Positions 3,031-51,957 of a stretch of DNA of 64,000 bases are shown here, one piece after another. The first letter of the stretch is position 1. Every line of letters starts with the position of its first letter. Below the pieces are notes generated by a model. That model saw only the letters and a program-made list of their open reading frames with translations, searched no databases and was not told where the DNA came from. Source of the DNA: a virus (Duplodnaviria > Caudoviricetes); IMG/VR virus record IMGVR_UViG_2974646641_000001, positions 1 through 64,000 of that record, one strand, 5' to 3'. The translations under genes and the position numbers were made by a program.

Positions 3031-3103
3031 GCTCCCCTAGTGTAATTGGTTAACACGCTAGGTTTCCAACCTAGTAATGTCGGTTCAAGTCCGGCCGGGA
3101 GCT
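3031..3103 (+). tRNA. tRNA-Gly(TCC), CCA not encoded
   Basis: Acceptor GCTCCCC/CGGGAGC (one mismatch), anticodon arm CTAGG-TTTCCAA-CCTAG, T arm GTCGG-TTCAAGT-CCGGC. Confidence 0.88.
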
Positions 3104-4950: not shown

Positions 4951-6405
4951 ATCGCTGATACAAAAAACAAATGGTCTTTAAAAAACATTTTTAAGATTCC
5001 ATTTAGCCAACAACAGCCGGGACAAGACAGTCGTGGCGGTACTTTTGTGCGGTCACAGACTGGTACAGGGCCGTTATCTTTCACTGGCGATGATAGACCT
5101 ATCACCGAAGATACGGTTATGGAAATTCCGGCATTCAGTGCGGCGTTAGCGTTGGTTGCTGATACGGTAGCTTCTCTTGATATTTTATTGATGAAGACAG
5201 GCGACCAAGGTGTCCCACTTCCTGTTAAAGATGACGAACGAATCGCAATGCTTAATAAGCAAGCGAATGAGGAAATGTCTGCTTTCACGTATAAACGTTC
5301 AGTTGTTAAAGACTTGCTGTTGTATGGTCGCTCGTTGACTTATATTGAGCGAACAAGCGATGGTAAAATTAATGCTATCTATCCTCTGGCTTCTCGTTAT
5401 ATGACTACCGAGGTTTATACTTACGGTGGTTACAAATATTATGGTGTTTATACCTATAATTCAGAAGCTGGTTCATTTGAGTACGATGAAGAAGATTTGA
5501 TGAACGTTATTTCTGATTCGCAAGATGGTATTACAGCAGACGGTATTATGGCAAACTATACTGGAACACTCCAACTAGCGTTAGCACAGCGTGATTATGA
5601 AAAGAACCTGTTATCTAACGGTGCGGTTCCTGTTGGCGCTGTACGTTCTGATAGAGCAGTTGCACCAGAAGTTCTAGCTAGATTAAAGCAACAGTTCGCT
5701 TCGACTTACGCCGGAGCTGGTAATTCTGGTAAGACGCTATTTTTGGAAGGTGGATTATCTTACCAACAAATCAGTACGAATCCAGATAACATGCAATTGG
5801 ACTCCAGTAAGAAAAGCATGTTGGGTGAGATTGCCCGCATGTTTAATCTGCCAGAAACACTTATCAACGCTGGTGCCAATAAGTATAATTCTAATGAGCA
5901 AAATAACCTACAATTTTTCCAGTATTGTCTAAAGCCTATTTTAGCAAGTTTTGAAGCCGCAATCAACAAGGAATTGTTGTTAGAATCTGAAAAAGAGCAA
6001 GGCTACTTCTTTAAGTTTGATACTGATACCATTATGCAAAACACTTTCAAAGAAAAAGTTGCCGCATATGGCGCCTTATACAAGCAAGGGCTTATCTCTT
6101 ACGATGAGTTCCGTAATAAGTTTGGCTTTAGCAATATCGAGGGTGAAGACTTCATCAACCTCAGCCTTGGTTCTGTTCTCTACTATCCTAAGACTGGTGA
6201 AATGAAGATTCCTAACTTGGGTGTCGCTGGTGGTGCTACGCAGAGTTCTGGCGACCCCACAAAGATTACTCCTAAGAATCAAACGTTAGATAACGTTGCC
6301 TCTGGGGAATCGAAAGGTATTCAAAAAGCTCCTAACCAAAAGAATCAAGATGACAGCCATCAAGCAAAGGCTGACAATAATATGTTAGGAGGTAATGACG
6401 ATTAA
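4951..6405 (+). CDS. portal protein (HK97 family); start probably ATC at 4951 rather than GTG 5047
   Basis: IPAFSAALALVADTVASL, LLYGRS...YI, LEGGLSY, EIARMFNLP motifs; SD AGGAGGG 7 nt before ATC with an open frame to 5047. Confidence 0.92.
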   Translation: MADTKNKWSLKNIFKIPFSQQQPGQDSRGGTFVRSQTGTGPLSFTGDDRPITEDTVMEIPAFSAALALVADTVASLDILLMKTGDQGVPLPVKDDERIAMLNKQANEEMSAFTYKRSVVKDLLLYGRSLTYIERTSDGKINAIYPLASRYMTTEVYTYGGYKYYGVYTYNSEAGSFEYDEEDLMNVISDSQDGITADGIMANYTGTLQLALAQRDYEKNLLSNGAVPVGAVRSDRAVAPEVLARLKQQFASTYAGAGNSGKTLFLEGGLSYQQISTNPDNMQLDSSKKSMLGEIARMFNLPETLINAGANKYNSNEQNNLQFFQYCLKPILASFEAAINKELLLESEKEQGYFFKFDTDTIMQNTFKEKVAAYGALYKQGLISYDEFRNKFGFSNIEGEDFINLSLGSVLYYPKTGEMKIPNLGVAGGATQSSGDPTKITPKNQTLDNVASGESKGIQKAPNQKNQDDSHQAKADNNMLGGNDD

Positions 6406-7618: not shown

Positions 7619-8908
7619 GTGAAAACAAAGAAAGGTCTTTTGGAAAAGCGCTCGGCTTTAAAGAGCAAGCTGAACGACTTTAAACCAGTTATTGAAGATG
7701 GCACTATTACTGACGAACAATTAGAAGAAATGCGTTCTATCAAGTCAGATATTGTTTCTATCAATGACGAAATCGCAAGTTTAGATGAACAACGCAGTAG
7801 CGCCATTCCTACACAACATAATACACGAGGAGCTGAAAAAAATATGGCAGATTTAAAGAAACTTGAAAAGCGGGCGGCCGCAGAATTATTCCGCGACAAC
7901 ATGCAAGGTAGCAAAGCGGTTCGTGACTATATTGAAGCCGTAAAAGAACATGATGAAGGTCTTGATGTAGAAGACCGTGCACTACCAGACAATGGTTTAT
8001 CATGGGGCCAAGCCGTTGACGGTCAAAAAGCCAACGGTGGTGTTCTCGTTCCTACGACCGTTGCTGATACTATTGTTGAAAAGTTACAAGAAACTTCACC
8101 AGTGTTTGCATTATCAAACAAGATTGGTTCTGTAACTGGTAACTTACGGGTTGTTCGTGAAAGTGATACTTCCGATGATGGTTTCGTTGGTGAACTTGAA
8201 GAAGTAAAAGCACAAACTCCATCATTGAAGTATGTTGAATTAACTCAAAAGCGTGTCGGTGCTTCAATGCAATTATCGAACATGATGATTAACGATGGTG
8301 CTCCTGACATTGTTAGCTACGCTGTTGGCCGTTTGGGCCGTTCATTAGCTAAGGCTATCGAACGCGCCGTATTAGTTGGTGCTAAGACTCCCGAAGCCGC
8401 TTCAAAGACTTTCCGCCCAGTTGTTGCCGCAGATAACGGCGTTCAAGTCGTTCAATTGGCCGGTGCAACTCCTACGTTGGACGAATTGATTGAATTAACA
8501 GCCTCAATTAACCCAGCATATTTAGACCGTGCCGTATTTGTAGTATCTCGTGAAGTGTTCAACGCTTTATCCAAGATGAAAGATGATGATAACGAACACT
8601 TAATCTTCAAGCCACAAATGCAAAACACTATTGCCGGCGCTGTGGCTGTTCGGCCGGGATTCTCATTCCAAGGCATTCCTGTGTTCGTATCTGACCAATT
8701 GAACGGTAACGCAGATGGTCAAATCGTTTTAGGTAACTTTAGTGCTGGTTACACTATTATGACTAAACAAGGGTTGCGTTTAACTCACGTTACTGCTGAT
8801 ACGCAACAAGCACTTGCTGGTGGTCATTTGGTTGTTCTTGACGGCTACATGGACGGTGCTGTTACTAACCCTGACGCATTCGTAGTTGCTAAGCCTGCGA
8901 GTAAGTAA
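7619..8908 (+). CDS. major capsid protein (HK97 fold, N-terminal coiled-coil delta domain)
   Basis: GGVLVPTTVADTIVEKL, FVGELEE, GIPVFVSDQL...LGNFS motifs; follows the protease. Confidence 0.93.
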   Translation: MKTKKGLLEKRSALKSKLNDFKPVIEDGTITDEQLEEMRSIKSDIVSINDEIASLDEQRSSAIPTQHNTRGAEKNMADLKKLEKRAAAELFRDNMQGSKAVRDYIEAVKEHDEGLDVEDRALPDNGLSWGQAVDGQKANGGVLVPTTVADTIVEKLQETSPVFALSNKIGSVTGNLRVVRESDTSDDGFVGELEEVKAQTPSLKYVELTQKRVGASMQLSNMMINDGAPDIVSYAVGRLGRSLAKAIERAVLVGAKTPEAASKTFRPVVAADNGVQVVQLAGATPTLDELIELTASINPAYLDRAVFVVSREVFNALSKMKDDDNEHLIFKPQMQNTIAGAVAVRPGFSFQGIPVFVSDQLNGNADGQIVLGNFSAGYTIMTKQGLRLTHVTADTQQALAGGHLVVLDGYMDGAVTNPDAFVVAKPASK

Positions 8909-49005: not shown

Positions 49006-49440
49006 TTATTCGCTCCAGTCGTATTTTATATTTTCGTGAATCTGAATATCATATTTTTTAGTTGTACCAAGAACCTTTGTTTTAAAGTCATGTTTCCTTA
49101 CAACAACAACTTCAACAGGAATACCATATTGCTTGGCGAACAGCTTGAATACAATTCCAGCTCCACGGTCAATCGCATAAGGCGTGAATCCGTTCTTTAC
49201 GTCATATACGTGTTTAATAATTCCTTTATCTCGTACCACGAAATCTGGTCGGTAGGTAATACCGCGTAATGTGATTTTGTCGTTAATAACGTTCTTTTCT
49301 AATAAATTAAACTTCTCATGGATAGTGATTGATTCAACATCAGAGTTCCTCAAAAACCTGTCATAGAAGTCATATTCTTTTTGAGAATCAAACGTAATAC
49401 CGTTTTCTTTTATTTTTTTACCATAATGTTGTAAACCCAA
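49006..49440 (-). CDS. PD-(D/E)XK nuclease (DUF1064-like)
   Basis: GITFDSQKE, ITYRPDF...VYDVKNG. Confidence 0.78.
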   Translation of the reverse strand: MGLQHYGKKIKENGITFDSQKEYDFYDRFLRNSDVESITIHEKFNLLEKNVINDKITLRGITYRPDFVVRDKGIIKHVYDVKNGFTPYAIDRGAGIVFKLFAKQYGIPVEVVVVRKHDFKTKVLGTTKKYDIQIHENIKYDWSE

Positions 49441-49758: not shown

Positions 49759-49941
49759 CTATTCTGGCAATATTTTTTCAACACTGCTTCGCTCGAATAA
49801 CTTGGTTTCGGTTGAGTCAGTAATTGAAACAACTAACATATCGTCTGTTCGTTGAGCCATGTCAAAAACATTAATTAATGCGACCACAACACCATAGATG
49901 TTTGTTCCTTTAATCTTAACAAAATCTCCGACAGAAAACAT
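49759..49941 (-). CDS. hypothetical protein (KOW/SH3-like start MFSVGDFVKI)
   Basis: GAGGAGG SD. Confidence 0.55.
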   Translation of the reverse strand: MFSVGDFVKIKGTNIYGVVVALINVFDMAQRTDDMLVVSITDSTETKLFERSSVEKILPE

Positions 49942-49944
49942 TGA

Positions 49945-50556
49945 TTAGTCCTCCTCATTTAGTAGTTTTTCAACTTTACGAGCTACGCTGTCGCCAAACT
50001 TGGTTCTGACGGATTCCGAGGCTTGGCTATTATAACAGGCGAACCAAAAGCCGTGATGTGATTTTCGTTTGCATTTGATAACATCGGTAATGTGTTGTTG
50101 ATAGGCCCCAAGCTGTCTAGCCGCTTCCATTCGTGACGGGAAACATAAGATTTCACACGTTGTTAAATTGATTGCAATTACACGCTGTCCCCGTGACTTG
50201 CCATATTTTTCAACATATTGCTGATTGTAGAAACCATCGCACCACTCCAAATTATCAACCAGATTGTTGGCTGGATTGCAATCAATATGATTAACTTGCG
50301 GTAGGCTGTCTGGATTATCAATAAAGCAACTTGCAACAACACGATGAACAAGCGCGTGAACTATTTTTCCGCCTGTCCTAAACGACACATACATGTAACC
50401 ATTTTTATGTCGGTGTTGCTTCAACACACGACCCTTAATCAATTGCTTGCGGCCGTCCTTACCTGTCACGTAGTGGTCGAGTGTCCTCACCCTACCTAAA
50501 TTACTACCTTGCAACCACTCAATTTCTGGATAAGTCTTCCAAATTTCATTTTCCAT
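49945..50556 (-). CDS. NUMOD4-HNH homing endonuclease
   Basis: EIWKTYP...SNLGRVR, VHRVVA...QVNHID...NLEWCD; promoter TTGACA(50626-21)-17-TACAAT. Confidence 0.9.
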   Translation of the reverse strand: MENEIWKTYPEIEWLQGSNLGRVRTLDHYVTGKDGRKQLIKGRVLKQHRHKNGYMYVSFRTGGKIVHALVHRVVASCFIDNPDSLPQVNHIDCNPANNLVDNLEWCDGFYNQQYVEKYGKSRGQRVIAINLTTCEILCFPSRMEAARQLGAYQQHITDVIKCKRKSHHGFWFACYNSQASESVRTKFGDSVARKVEKLLNEED

Positions 50557-50649
50557 TCTTAAAATCCTCCTTAATTTATATTTCTTGATATGATTCAATT
50601 GTAACATTGTCTGAATATTTTGTCAACCACTTCTTTGTAATTTGTTGTT

Positions 50650-51465
50650 AATAAATAGAGAAATCATACGTGTTTCTATGTTTATGGAAAAATTTCTCGC
50701 CTTAGAAACCGGCTCTGTGTGCATATCAACTAATAACAACCAATCTGACGAACTGGTCTGTTTCTCAACGAGTTGGATTCAACGTGACGTCTAGTATATG
50801 AAAAACACCTTAGTTTAGCTTAGCCCGGCACTCACATAATCGTGCCCCAACCATAAAAACCCAAAACCAATTAATATTTAGATTGATTCTGGTTTGTTTA
50901 GTTAGATGTAACTTTAATTTAACACAAGACTAGAACCACCGCTGTTTGTAATGCGATTTGTTGAGCTGAACAGTCCTTTGCCTTAGCTCATATAAAAAAG
51001 TGCAGACTAATACACTGACTAAGAAACAAAGGATTGTGAGTTGTTCGCAACGCTGATAGTGTCGCCTCACGGGAGATTTATCCTTGATTAGTATTTCAAC
51101 TAATCACTAGCTTTCTACTACTACGTCATCTGTCCAAGTAGCTTAGCTTTCGCATATCTTCTAGTTTGCCTTACAGAGTGAGTTGAGTCTAATCGCCATA
51201 TTAATAGTAAATAACAGAACTCATATCTGCCAGTGACTAGCTTAGTACGATTAGCGAACTTTGGCCCTTTTCCATTCCGTCTTTAGCATATCCATTTCAT
51301 AAGGACTTAGCTTTCATCATACGATTAGAGGCTTCGGAAATTTTACCCCTTGACGCAACCAGCACCACTTCAAATCTCCTAAAGCAATACCGGCACTTAC
51401 CTATTTGTTAGTAACGCAGTAGGTTTTCTGCGCTGAATATTTGGTGCTTATTAAGTTTTCGTTAT
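50650..51465 (-). ncRNA. candidate large structured non-coding RNA (~800 nt)
   Basis: No ORF >=60 aa; two upstream minus-strand promoters; many hairpins and GAAA/CGAA-type loops. Confidence 0.5.
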
Positions 51466-51476
51466 TTTATGTCTAT

Positions 51477-51576
51477 ATAATAGCACATTTTTTTCAAGCT
51501 TGTCAATAGTTTTTACTAACTTTTTAAACTCTTTGTGCTACGGTATCATCTTATCACAATGGCCTTTTATTGTCAA
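51477..51576 (-). promoter_or_regulatory. tandem promoters firing into the ORF-free locus
   Basis: TTGACA(51506-01)-18-TG-TATTAT and TTGACA(51576-71)-17-TG-TAAGAT. Confidence 0.75.
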
Positions 51577-51612
51577 CTAAAAAAATATTTTTATCTTTTT
51601 TGTAATTTACTA

Positions 51613-51641
51613 TTGACTTTGTGTTGGAATCATGCTATTAT
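51613..51641 (+). promoter_or_regulatory. divergent promoter of the replication block
   Basis: TTGACT-17-TG-TATTAT then AAAGGAGG SD. Confidence 0.8.
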
Positions 51642-51672
51642 ATAGTCACATTCAAAAAAGGAGGAAATAGCG

Positions 51673-51957
51673 ATGGAAAGGCGAATCATTATGAGTCCAG
51701 ACGAATATGAGGAATTAGAAGCAGATTCAAACCGTCTTGAATACTTTATGTCGCTTTTTAAGGTTGATGGACAAGATGTAATTCTGAATAAAACTTCAAT
51801 TTTATCCCTAGTATTATCGAAGCAATTGGTCGATGAGGGCTACGAACGGGTAACAACTATCTATGGGAGTGGTAAGGCAATTGCACTAGAAGGATTTAAA
51901 GAAGACGGTCAGACTAAAGAAATGGGGTTGGACGATTATGAAATTAAAATTCAGTAA
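51673..51957 (+). CDS. hypothetical protein
   Basis: Strong SD. Confidence 0.65.
   Translation: MERRIIMSPDEYEELEADSNRLEYFMSLFKVDGQDVILNKTSILSLVLSKQLVDEGYERVTTIYGSGKAIALEGFKEDGQTKEMGLDDYEIKIQ

Follow-up and report, generated by a model that had tools for sequence, protein, structure and literature searches.

To our knowledge, very few large, intricately folded RNAs of bacteria and phages have been described, and most of them are of mysterious function. The GEBRO motif is a GC-enriched element that lies between the predicted single-strand origin (SSO) and double-strand origin (DSO) of plasmid pUA140, and it has been suggested to help or regulate rolling-circle replication, possibly as single-stranded DNA (ssDNA) (Weinberg et al. 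2017, PMC5737381). A literature search found no other paper that mentions this RNA. The 5.6-kb plasmids of S. mutans belong to the pT181 family, with the SSO at ~4998-5174, the nick site at 296-319 and the start of rep at 398 (PMC3547324). The GEBRO of pUA140 occupies 5167-5510; therefore, it is situated just upstream of rep and is co-oriented with it. ROOL is a large (~600 nt) multi-pseudoknotted RNA of Lactobacillales phages and prophages, and the "pseudoknots" that covariation had indicated in ROOL and in GOLLD turned out to be intermolecular bridges (PMC12286853). Here, we describe a locus on the minus strand of 64,000 nucleotides (nt) of phage DNA, positions 1-64,000 of the IMG/VR record IMGVR_UViG_2974646641_000001 (Caudoviricetes, a Lactiplantibacillus phage whose full record is 73.8 kb). 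This stretch is called the window below. We conclude that the locus is very probably a structured RNA gene related to GEBRO.

Comparison with phage genomes by blastn located the region in eight isolates. Seven of these are Tybeckvirinae (Satyr, Maenad, Gut-P1, SA-C12, Nyseid, Lenus and ATCC 8014-B2), and the eighth, LP65, is a member of the Herelleviridae, a family unrelated to the Tybeckvirinae. The phages that carry the RNA have L. plantarum/brevis as hosts, and in all eight isolates the region falls in a gap without genuine coding sequence. Pattern scans contributed seven more contigs (three from IMG/VR and four from metagenomes), six of them distinct. The same kind of scan found no copy of the RNA in 185,579 bacterial species genomes; the single match among the genome contigs, L039, was random and not the RNA. 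In IMG/VR, a loose 23-mer pattern gave only random extra matches, and a pattern bridging GEBRO and the phage RNA returned known phages only. The 14 distinct homologues are 61-97% identical over a core of ~540 nt. LP65 and ATCC 8014-B2 are 80% identical over 709 nt, and their flanks are without similarity. These two phages share the ~710-nt RNA unit alone; thus, it is the RNA unit itself that was transferred from one phage lineage to an unrelated one with the same host. The region goes unmentioned in the papers on these phages (PMC6669764, PMC10269749).

Alignment of the 14 distinct sequences (alignment A4) yielded, with RNAalifold, a consensus structure of 97 nested pairs in 19 helices, and 41 of these pairs have compensatory changes. 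Over the 97 pairs, 97.9% of the cells are standard-paired, versus 33-44% when the partners are slid by 1-3 columns. The number of compensatory pairs falls from 41 to 1-10 in the slid controls, and none of 500 shuffles reached the observed values. Two pseudoknots, PK1 and PK2, were found by a scan of all column pairs and confirmed by counting (99% paired, with 8 compensatory positions). The first-pass annotation of this DNA had proposed a covariation check on homologues, and the check supports both the nested pairs and the two pseudoknots. It had also called the locus "highly structured"; this holds by covariation among the 14 homologues, but it is not readable from one sequence, the folding energy of which is within the range expected by chance (z = -1.41 for the core and -0.10 for the 3' part). 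The case for structure rests on covariation and not on single-sequence helices. The helix that closes the core, P2 (51395-51401 paired with 50943-50949), shows no compensatory change, and its pairing reaches only 88%; we therefore treat it as tentative. In the alignment, G-U cells outnumber A-C cells by 212 to 5. The structured strand is therefore the minus strand of the window, which is the one that the promoters transcribe.

What kind of RNA is this? The window was scanned with the Rfam 15 library (4,227 models) at gathering scores and at E <= 10, and no family matched within 50400-51750 at E <= 10. (The only matches in the window at gathering score were two tRNA genes, at 2233-2306 and 3031-3103.) A scan of eight homologous loci returned GEBRO (RF02988) as the only significant match inside the RNA, next to one chance-level match (E = 4.1). 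The GEBRO model matches one homologue, L028, with 42 bits (E = 3e-10). This is the best score of any homologue, and none reaches the gathering score of 284.7 bits; the genuine GEBROs of S. mutans pUA140 and S. thermophilus pSt0 score 347 and 290 bits, respectively. In the LP65 RNA, the same model gave three collinear matches (positions 26-98, 165-223 and 259-316; E = 2.5, 0.5 and 3.4e-4), the best of which scored 18 bits, with ~80 extra nt between the last two.

The relationship is also seen in the reverse direction. Covariance model R1 (105 positions), for which 13 phage sequences but not L028 were used, matches the GEBROs of pUA140 and pSt0 over its full length, at their 3' ends, with 42 bits (E ~4e-8). 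It had no match in six control loci, and in the 64-kb window it found only the RNA itself. All 22 of the R1 pairs form in the plasmid GEBROs, 5-6 of them as pair types unseen in the phages. The two plasmids are themselves distant (24% identity in Rep and 29% in Mob); their GEBRO 3' modules are each 78-82% identical to the GEBRO consensus fragment. By blastn, there was no real match of the phage RNA in the plasmids or of GEBRO in the phages, and no homologues of the plasmid proteins (Rep, Mob and others) were found in the phage loci by tblastn.

The likeness extends to topology. Both in the phage RNA (as PK1) and in GEBRO (in the Rfam consensus), the strand that directly follows the UUGAAAUA hairpin is paired to a segment upstream of it, and by inspection the 5' strand of this terminal pseudoknot is located in a hairpin loop in either RNA. 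The GEBRO hairpin in question, the first of the motif, reads CCUG/CAGG in pUA140 and CUCG/CGAG in pSt0. A second hairpin (AGGU/ACCU and GGGU/ACCC, respectively) was likewise identified by inspection, and its loop pairs downstream of the CUAAG/UAUG hairpin (UCGC/GCGA in pUA140 and GGUG/CACC in pSt0). By inspection, the arrangement of P3 with PK1 and of P4 with PK2 is therefore common to the phage RNA and GEBRO, and the helices covary between the two plasmids. The resemblance of the middle part, also recognized by inspection, involves pairs that covary within the phage RNA and within GEBRO, and it is the region of the weak LP65 match with E = 0.5. The Rfam consensus of GEBRO omits both covarying hairpins, the loops of which form annotated long-range pairings (pUA140 5270-5400, pSt0 7660-7780). 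In pUA140, the region matching the 5' part of the GEBRO model further contains a promoter-like site, TTAACA-16-TAAGAT (5198-5225).

The 3' modules match in both directions (E ~1e-8 to 1e-10), and by inspection both RNAs have the same double-pseudoknot topology; we therefore regard the phage RNA as an expanded relative of GEBRO. Common to the two is a 3' module of ~105 nt, in which a three-way junction bearing the GAAA hairpin is followed by the UUGAAAUA hairpin and the strand of the terminal pseudoknot; by inspection, the second pseudoknot and the CUAAG/UAUG hairpin correspond as well. Both are carried by mobile elements of Lactobacillales, where they lie upstream of replication genes and are co-oriented with them. 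The phage RNA differs in being 1.5 to 2.2 times larger, with P1, P8-P13, P18-P19 and a 3' extension added. Further, its carriers are virulent phages, whereas GEBRO lies between the two origins (SSO and DSO) of rolling-circle plasmids; it has no rolling-circle Rep homologue nearby, and it is not GC-enriched: the GC content of the RNA region (0.36-0.39) equals that of its flanks. The suggestion of the first-pass annotation that the locus might represent a new class is thus correct insofar as no Rfam family matches at threshold, but ~105 nt of the core and, by inspection, the double-pseudoknot topology are homologous to GEBRO. The coordinates of the core and of the features around it are collected in Table 1.

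Table 1. Features of the RNA locus, in 5' to 3' order on the minus strand (window coordinates)
Feature	Position	Strand	Remarks
Upstream promoter P-a	51548-51576	minus	TTGACA-17-TAAGAT, TG-extended; consensus scan 10/12; also in Satyr (alignment)
Proximal promoter P-b	51477-51506	minus	TTGACA-18-TATTAT, TG-extended; consensus scan 11/12
Conserved RNA core, ~527 nt, 19 nested helices and 2 pseudoknots	50943-51470	minus	Alignment A4, 14 distinct sequences
P1 hairpin (GCAG...CUGC)	51416-51431	minus	2 of 4 pairs compensatory
P3 hairpin; loop bears the PK1 5' strand GGAGAUUU (51372-51379)	51358-51394	minus	Six compensatory pairs
P4 hairpin; loop UUUCC (51336-51340) is the PK2 5' strand	51327-51350	minus	3 compensatory pairs
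P6/P7 hairpin with CUAAG/UAUG internal loop	51286-51311	minus	Helices covary; same hairpin, by inspection, in GEBRO of pUA140
PK2 3' strand CGGAAU	51274-51279	minus	PK2 has 6 bp, 3 compensatory positions
P8-P13 domain, ~90 nt, largely an insertion relative to GEBRO	51175-51267	minus	P9-P13 covary; collinear GEBRO matches in LP65 leave ~80 extra nt
3' module homologous to GEBRO: P14/P15/P16 three-way junction (P15 with a GAAA tetraloop), hairpin P17 (loop UUGAAAUA), PK1 strand	51070-51175	minus	Covariance-model matches
PK1 3' strand AAAUCUCC, directly after hairpin P17	51072-51079	minus	8 bp, 100% paired in 14 sequences, 5 positions changed on both sides
P18 and long-range helix P19, enclosing a variable U-rich apical region	50974-51064	minus	Covariation
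3' extension, a mosaic of conserved blocks, with hairpin 50827-50846 and U-rich block GGUUUCUAAG (50701-50710)	50660-50942	minus	In 11 of 14 homologues
Next promoter and HNH homing-endonuclease gene, outside the RNA	Promoter 50598-50626, gene 49945-50607	minus	Pfam NUMOD4, I-HmuI NUMOD-like

The alignment also allows the individual helices of the first-pass annotation to be judged. Four of them have compensatory changes, namely GCGCAG/CTGCGT (P1), TGATTAGT-TGAAAT-ACTAATCA (P17), GC-GAAA-GC (P15) and CTAATCG/CGATTAG (P10-11), and a fifth, GGCAC/GTGCC, is supported by eye only. AGCACCA/TGGTGCT is not conserved in the homologues, in which TGGTGCT pairs instead with GCCGGTA in P3; GTTG-CGAA-CAAC and TGAGCT/AGCTCA are not conserved either, and neither are the repeated words GTRAGTGCCGG and the first CTAATCGTA. 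The gap, the promoters and part of the helices thus stand, and the three helices that are not conserved, the repeated words and the single-sequence argument for structure do not.

Two elements of the core bear on its tertiary fold. The CUAAG/UAUG internal loop sequence of P6/P7 is present in 8 of the 14 members, and we take it to be the sequence of the classic 11-nt GAAA-tetraloop receptor. The GAAA tetraloop of P15 is invariant among the homologues. Judged from these sequences, the tetraloop and the receptor-like hairpin probably add a further tertiary contact. Elsewhere in the core, the extension of P19 reads, by eye, CUUAG/CUAAG in some copies versus CCUGU/ACAGG in others. One CUUUG segment is complementary to each of two AGGCAAA copies (A4 columns 316-322 and 516-523), of which P19 uses the second; in the window, these sites are at 50974-50982, 51025-51033 and ~51165-51171. 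It is possible that the first copy provides an alternative pairing and thereby a conformational switch, for which the covariation is thin.

No conserved open reading frame (ORF) was found in the core: the longest ORFs have 25-76 amino acids (25 in the LP65 copy) and differ in strand and position among the homologues. In SA-C12, alone among the eight isolates, short ORFs are annotated in the gap: the hypothetical proteins SAC12_087 and SAC12_088 (locus L003, 2560-2766 and 2786-2971), which lie on opposite strands of the conserved RNA. They are kept in no homologue and therefore are probably spurious calls. The largest interval of the window without an ORF of >=60 amino acids is 50608-51672 (1,065 nt), in agreement with the first-pass description of the locus as the largest non-coding gap of a densely packed genome.

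The same description had two near-consensus minus-strand promoters firing into the gap and had the locus end before a further promoter. A consensus scan recovered both of the former, each with an extended -10 element, and a third minus-strand promoter was found at 50626-50598. In LP65, SA-C12 and Lenus, a promoter is located at the equivalent place, and 7-8 nt separate its end from the conserved 5' end of the RNA; a promoter at this fixed distance is thus conserved in all of the copies checked (the window, LP65, SA-C12 and Lenus). Promoter-like sites are no more frequent in the region than expected by chance (13, versus 10 +/- 3.2), and the argument for the promoters rests on their quality and conservation. 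From the position of P-b, transcription would start at ~51470.

Downstream of the core, the 3' extension is a mosaic of two or three sequence types that is absent in the Lenus group, and RNAalifold found no consensus structure for it. This segment of ~280 nt travels with the core into LP65, and it therefore is probably part of the same unit and transcript. An RNA of ~530 nt at least, and of ~770 nt at most with the 3' extension, is probable. Of the extent first proposed for the locus, 50650-51465, the part corresponding to 50943-51470 is well supported, but 50650-50942 has mosaic conservation only and no consensus fold. In place of the extension, the Lenus-type copies (L006, L030 and L032) have a short hairpin that directly adjoins the core and precedes the next promoter. 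This hairpin is compensatory (UGCAUG/CGUGCA, UGCACG/CGUGCA and UGUCG/CGACA; e.g., L006 3035-3060) and has no U-tract behind it.

The locus is flanked by genes for DnaB helicase, a deoxynucleoside kinase and DUF1064. In the Tybeckvirinae, the RNA heads a gene arm; it lies between the DnaB, deoxynucleoside kinase and DUF1064 genes and a gene that is annotated as a replication protein in ATCC 8014-B2. The GC skew switches sign at 51.0-51.5 kb, and the minimum of the cumulative skew is near 51.5 kb, at the divergent promoter region. This change of sign fits either an origin or simply a switch of gene orientation. The first-pass annotation had offered a replication origin at this divergence point as an alternative to an RNA. 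GEBRO sits between plasmid origins and the phage GC skew flips here; for these reasons, such an origin may be linked to the RNA. A literature search on the origin of these phages found nothing.

A block of ~890 nt (49941-50828), comprising the HNH gene next to the locus, its promoter and the distal 3' extension, is replaced in Satyr by a different segment of 365 nt. Satyr is otherwise 92-94% identical to the window around the block, and the breakpoint, 50829, is inside the hairpin at 50827-50846. HNH genes are found on both sides of the RNA in Gut-P1, and none is found in Satyr, Maenad or Lenus. This pattern suggests homing, accompanied by co-conversion of a segment of the RNA gene.

We propose the following explanation. 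The host sigma-A RNA polymerase would transcribe the minus-strand RNA gene from the tandem promoters, with a start near 51470. The core of ~527 nt would fold compactly, its P3 loop pairing behind P17 and its P4 loop pairing behind the receptor hairpin. The RNA may then act in trans as a self-sufficient fold, with a host factor common to Lactobacillales, and the process that it serves would most likely be the establishment or control of the element's replication. Two plasmid lineages with Reps that are 24% identical and two unrelated phage families carry the module. Because the same module is found in replicons that share no proteins, we infer an action that is self-sufficient and dependent on host factors. 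Replication is the most likely role because GEBRO is located between SSO and DSO upstream of rep, and the phage copy heads the arm of replication genes at the skew switch. To the explanation as a whole, with the replication link included, we assign about an even chance.

Several observations weigh against this account. The GEBRO model had no match in the window or in the whole phage record, even at E <= 10. A second phage model, R2, which covers the P4-P7 part, scored 12.6 bits against the plasmids (E = 2.7), which is not significant. Homology over the full length is therefore likely, but proven only for the 3' module. No convincing intrinsic terminator was found at the locus; the best candidate is the conserved U-rich block GGUUUCUAAG behind a weak hairpin, and its equivalent in SA-C12 is flagged as terminator-like. 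The discrete transcript is a prediction. Within the 5 kb examined, the contigs of two fermentation metatranscriptomes are confined to 51048-51322, except for two small, poor matches near 49082-49164 (from run X19). The stretch itself had served to select these runs, in which DNA may be present, and the contigs show no ends, strand or abundance; read run X5 is probably DNA, and the parts left uncovered in X18-X20 are uninformative. The core fragments therein are a weak hint at RNA. The neighbors of the RNA in LP65 are not replication genes but tRNAs, a nucleoside transporter and NadR-like genes. Finally, the link to replication comes from position only, and the flip of the skew coincides with the switch in gene orientation, which may be its cause.

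The same RNA gene could instead act in the manner of GOLLD or ROOL, as an abundant, self-assembling, RNA-only multimer or particle, in a role unrelated to replication such as host takeover, encapsulation or counter-defence. In such a particle, PK1 or PK2 would be intermolecular bridges, for which GOLLD and ROOL themselves set the precedent (PMC12286853). With ROOL, the present RNA has in common that it is large, multi-pseudoknotted and carried by phages of Lactobacillales; with GOLLD, which is a phage RNA of ~800 nt often located near tRNAs, it shares the division into a conserved and a variable part. Its variable sequences are the region within the conserved P19 and the 3' part, whereas the variable part of GOLLD is at the 5' end (PMC12286853). 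The LP65 copy lies beside tRNAs, as GOLLD and ROOL often do, and the movement of the RNA between unrelated phages of one host would also suit such a role. In that phage (L004, 75-937), a cluster of four tRNA genes is ~1.5 kb from the RNA, and the tRNA model matches the strand opposite to that annotated in the record. However, the ROOL model (RF03087) had no match in the whole phage record at E <= 10 or in the Rfam scans, and no module in common with ROOL was found; GEBRO is the closer family. Among the 4,227 Rfam models, GOLLD, the group I and group II introns and the other families were likewise without a match at the locus. The first-pass annotation had proposed this Rfam comparison; its reading, a large and ornate non-coding RNA driven by promoters and distinct from both GOLLD and ROOL, is supported by the Rfam scans, the ROOL model and the covariation. 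The single demonstrable relative of the RNA is a plasmid motif located between replication origins, and no self-complementary loop fit for symmetric kissing was noticed. We thus consider a particle-like role unlikely, yet worth bearing in mind.

Another possibility is that the fold works as ssDNA. In that case it would be a single-strand origin or a site of the primosome-assembly type on the lagging-strand template, priming synthesis of the complementary strand, and GEBRO may act likewise on the displaced strand of rolling-circle plasmids. A function as ssDNA was raised for GEBRO by Weinberg et al. (PMC5737381), and GEBRO adjoins the predicted SSO (PMC3547324). If an origin is present at the divergence point, the skew would make the structured strand the lagging-strand template of the leftward fork, and DNA, too, tolerates G-T wobbles. 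In all of the phage copies checked, a strong promoter is positioned precisely where the conserved sequence begins, which argues for RNA instead. The GAAA tetraloop and the 11-nt receptor are tertiary modules of RNA that depend on 2'-OH groups, and motifs of this type would be out of place in a DNA element. Core fragments are present in metatranscriptome assemblies, which argues weakly in the same direction. Further, 19 helices and two pseudoknots are far more complex than known single-strand origins. Plasmid single-strand origins and the RNA II of ColE1 resemble the present RNA in being structured elements of a few hundred nt at replication origins that employ host enzymes only; they differ in having simple stem-loops and no conserved pseudoknots or tetraloop-receptor modules. 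On balance, we find an ssDNA element quite improbable.

Least probable of all is an action in cis, as a long structured leader, or a processed 5' portion, of the mRNA that encodes the early and replication functions downstream, or as a pre-primer like RNA II at an adjacent origin: the lack of a terminator between the core and the downstream genes, the constant co-orientation of the RNA with the downstream gene arm, the place of GEBRO upstream of and co-oriented with rep, and the similar length of ColE1 RNA II all accord with it, but the downstream genes vary (the HNH gene is present or absent, and those of LP65 are wholly different) and have their own near-consensus promoter, the core of the Lenus group is followed immediately by a new promoter, and the horizontally transferred unit is the RNA alone.

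Returning to the reading of the locus as a GEBRO-related RNA gene, a bolder form of it can be imagined. GEBRO-type RNAs could constitute an RNA-based replication device that is passed among the mobile elements of Lactobacillales. Such a self-folding RNA, possibly catalytic or a recruiter of host enzymes, would start or license the DNA synthesis of rolling-circle plasmids and virulent phages alike, without a partner protein encoded by the element. We hold this conjecture to be distinctly unlikely as it stands.

The phage RNA is an expanded, phage-borne and uncatalogued variant of the functionally orphan GEBRO motif, with no Rfam family at threshold. This RNA is present in cultivable phages (Satyr, Maenad, Lenus, Nyseid, SA-C12, ATCC 8014-B2, Gut-P1 and LP65) of a tractable, food-grade host, and it is therefore directly testable. 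For structural biology, it represents a new multi-pseudoknot RNA for which nature supplies both a minimal form (GEBRO, ~300 nt) and an expanded one (~530-770 nt). The connection joins an orphan plasmid motif to an RNA of phages and indicates that the module is functional in replicons without any proteins in common. The possible functions are thereby narrowed to host-dependent processes that are common to plasmids and lytic phages, among which replication is the leading candidate. Plasmids and phages of these bacteria may thus share an RNA device, perhaps for replication.

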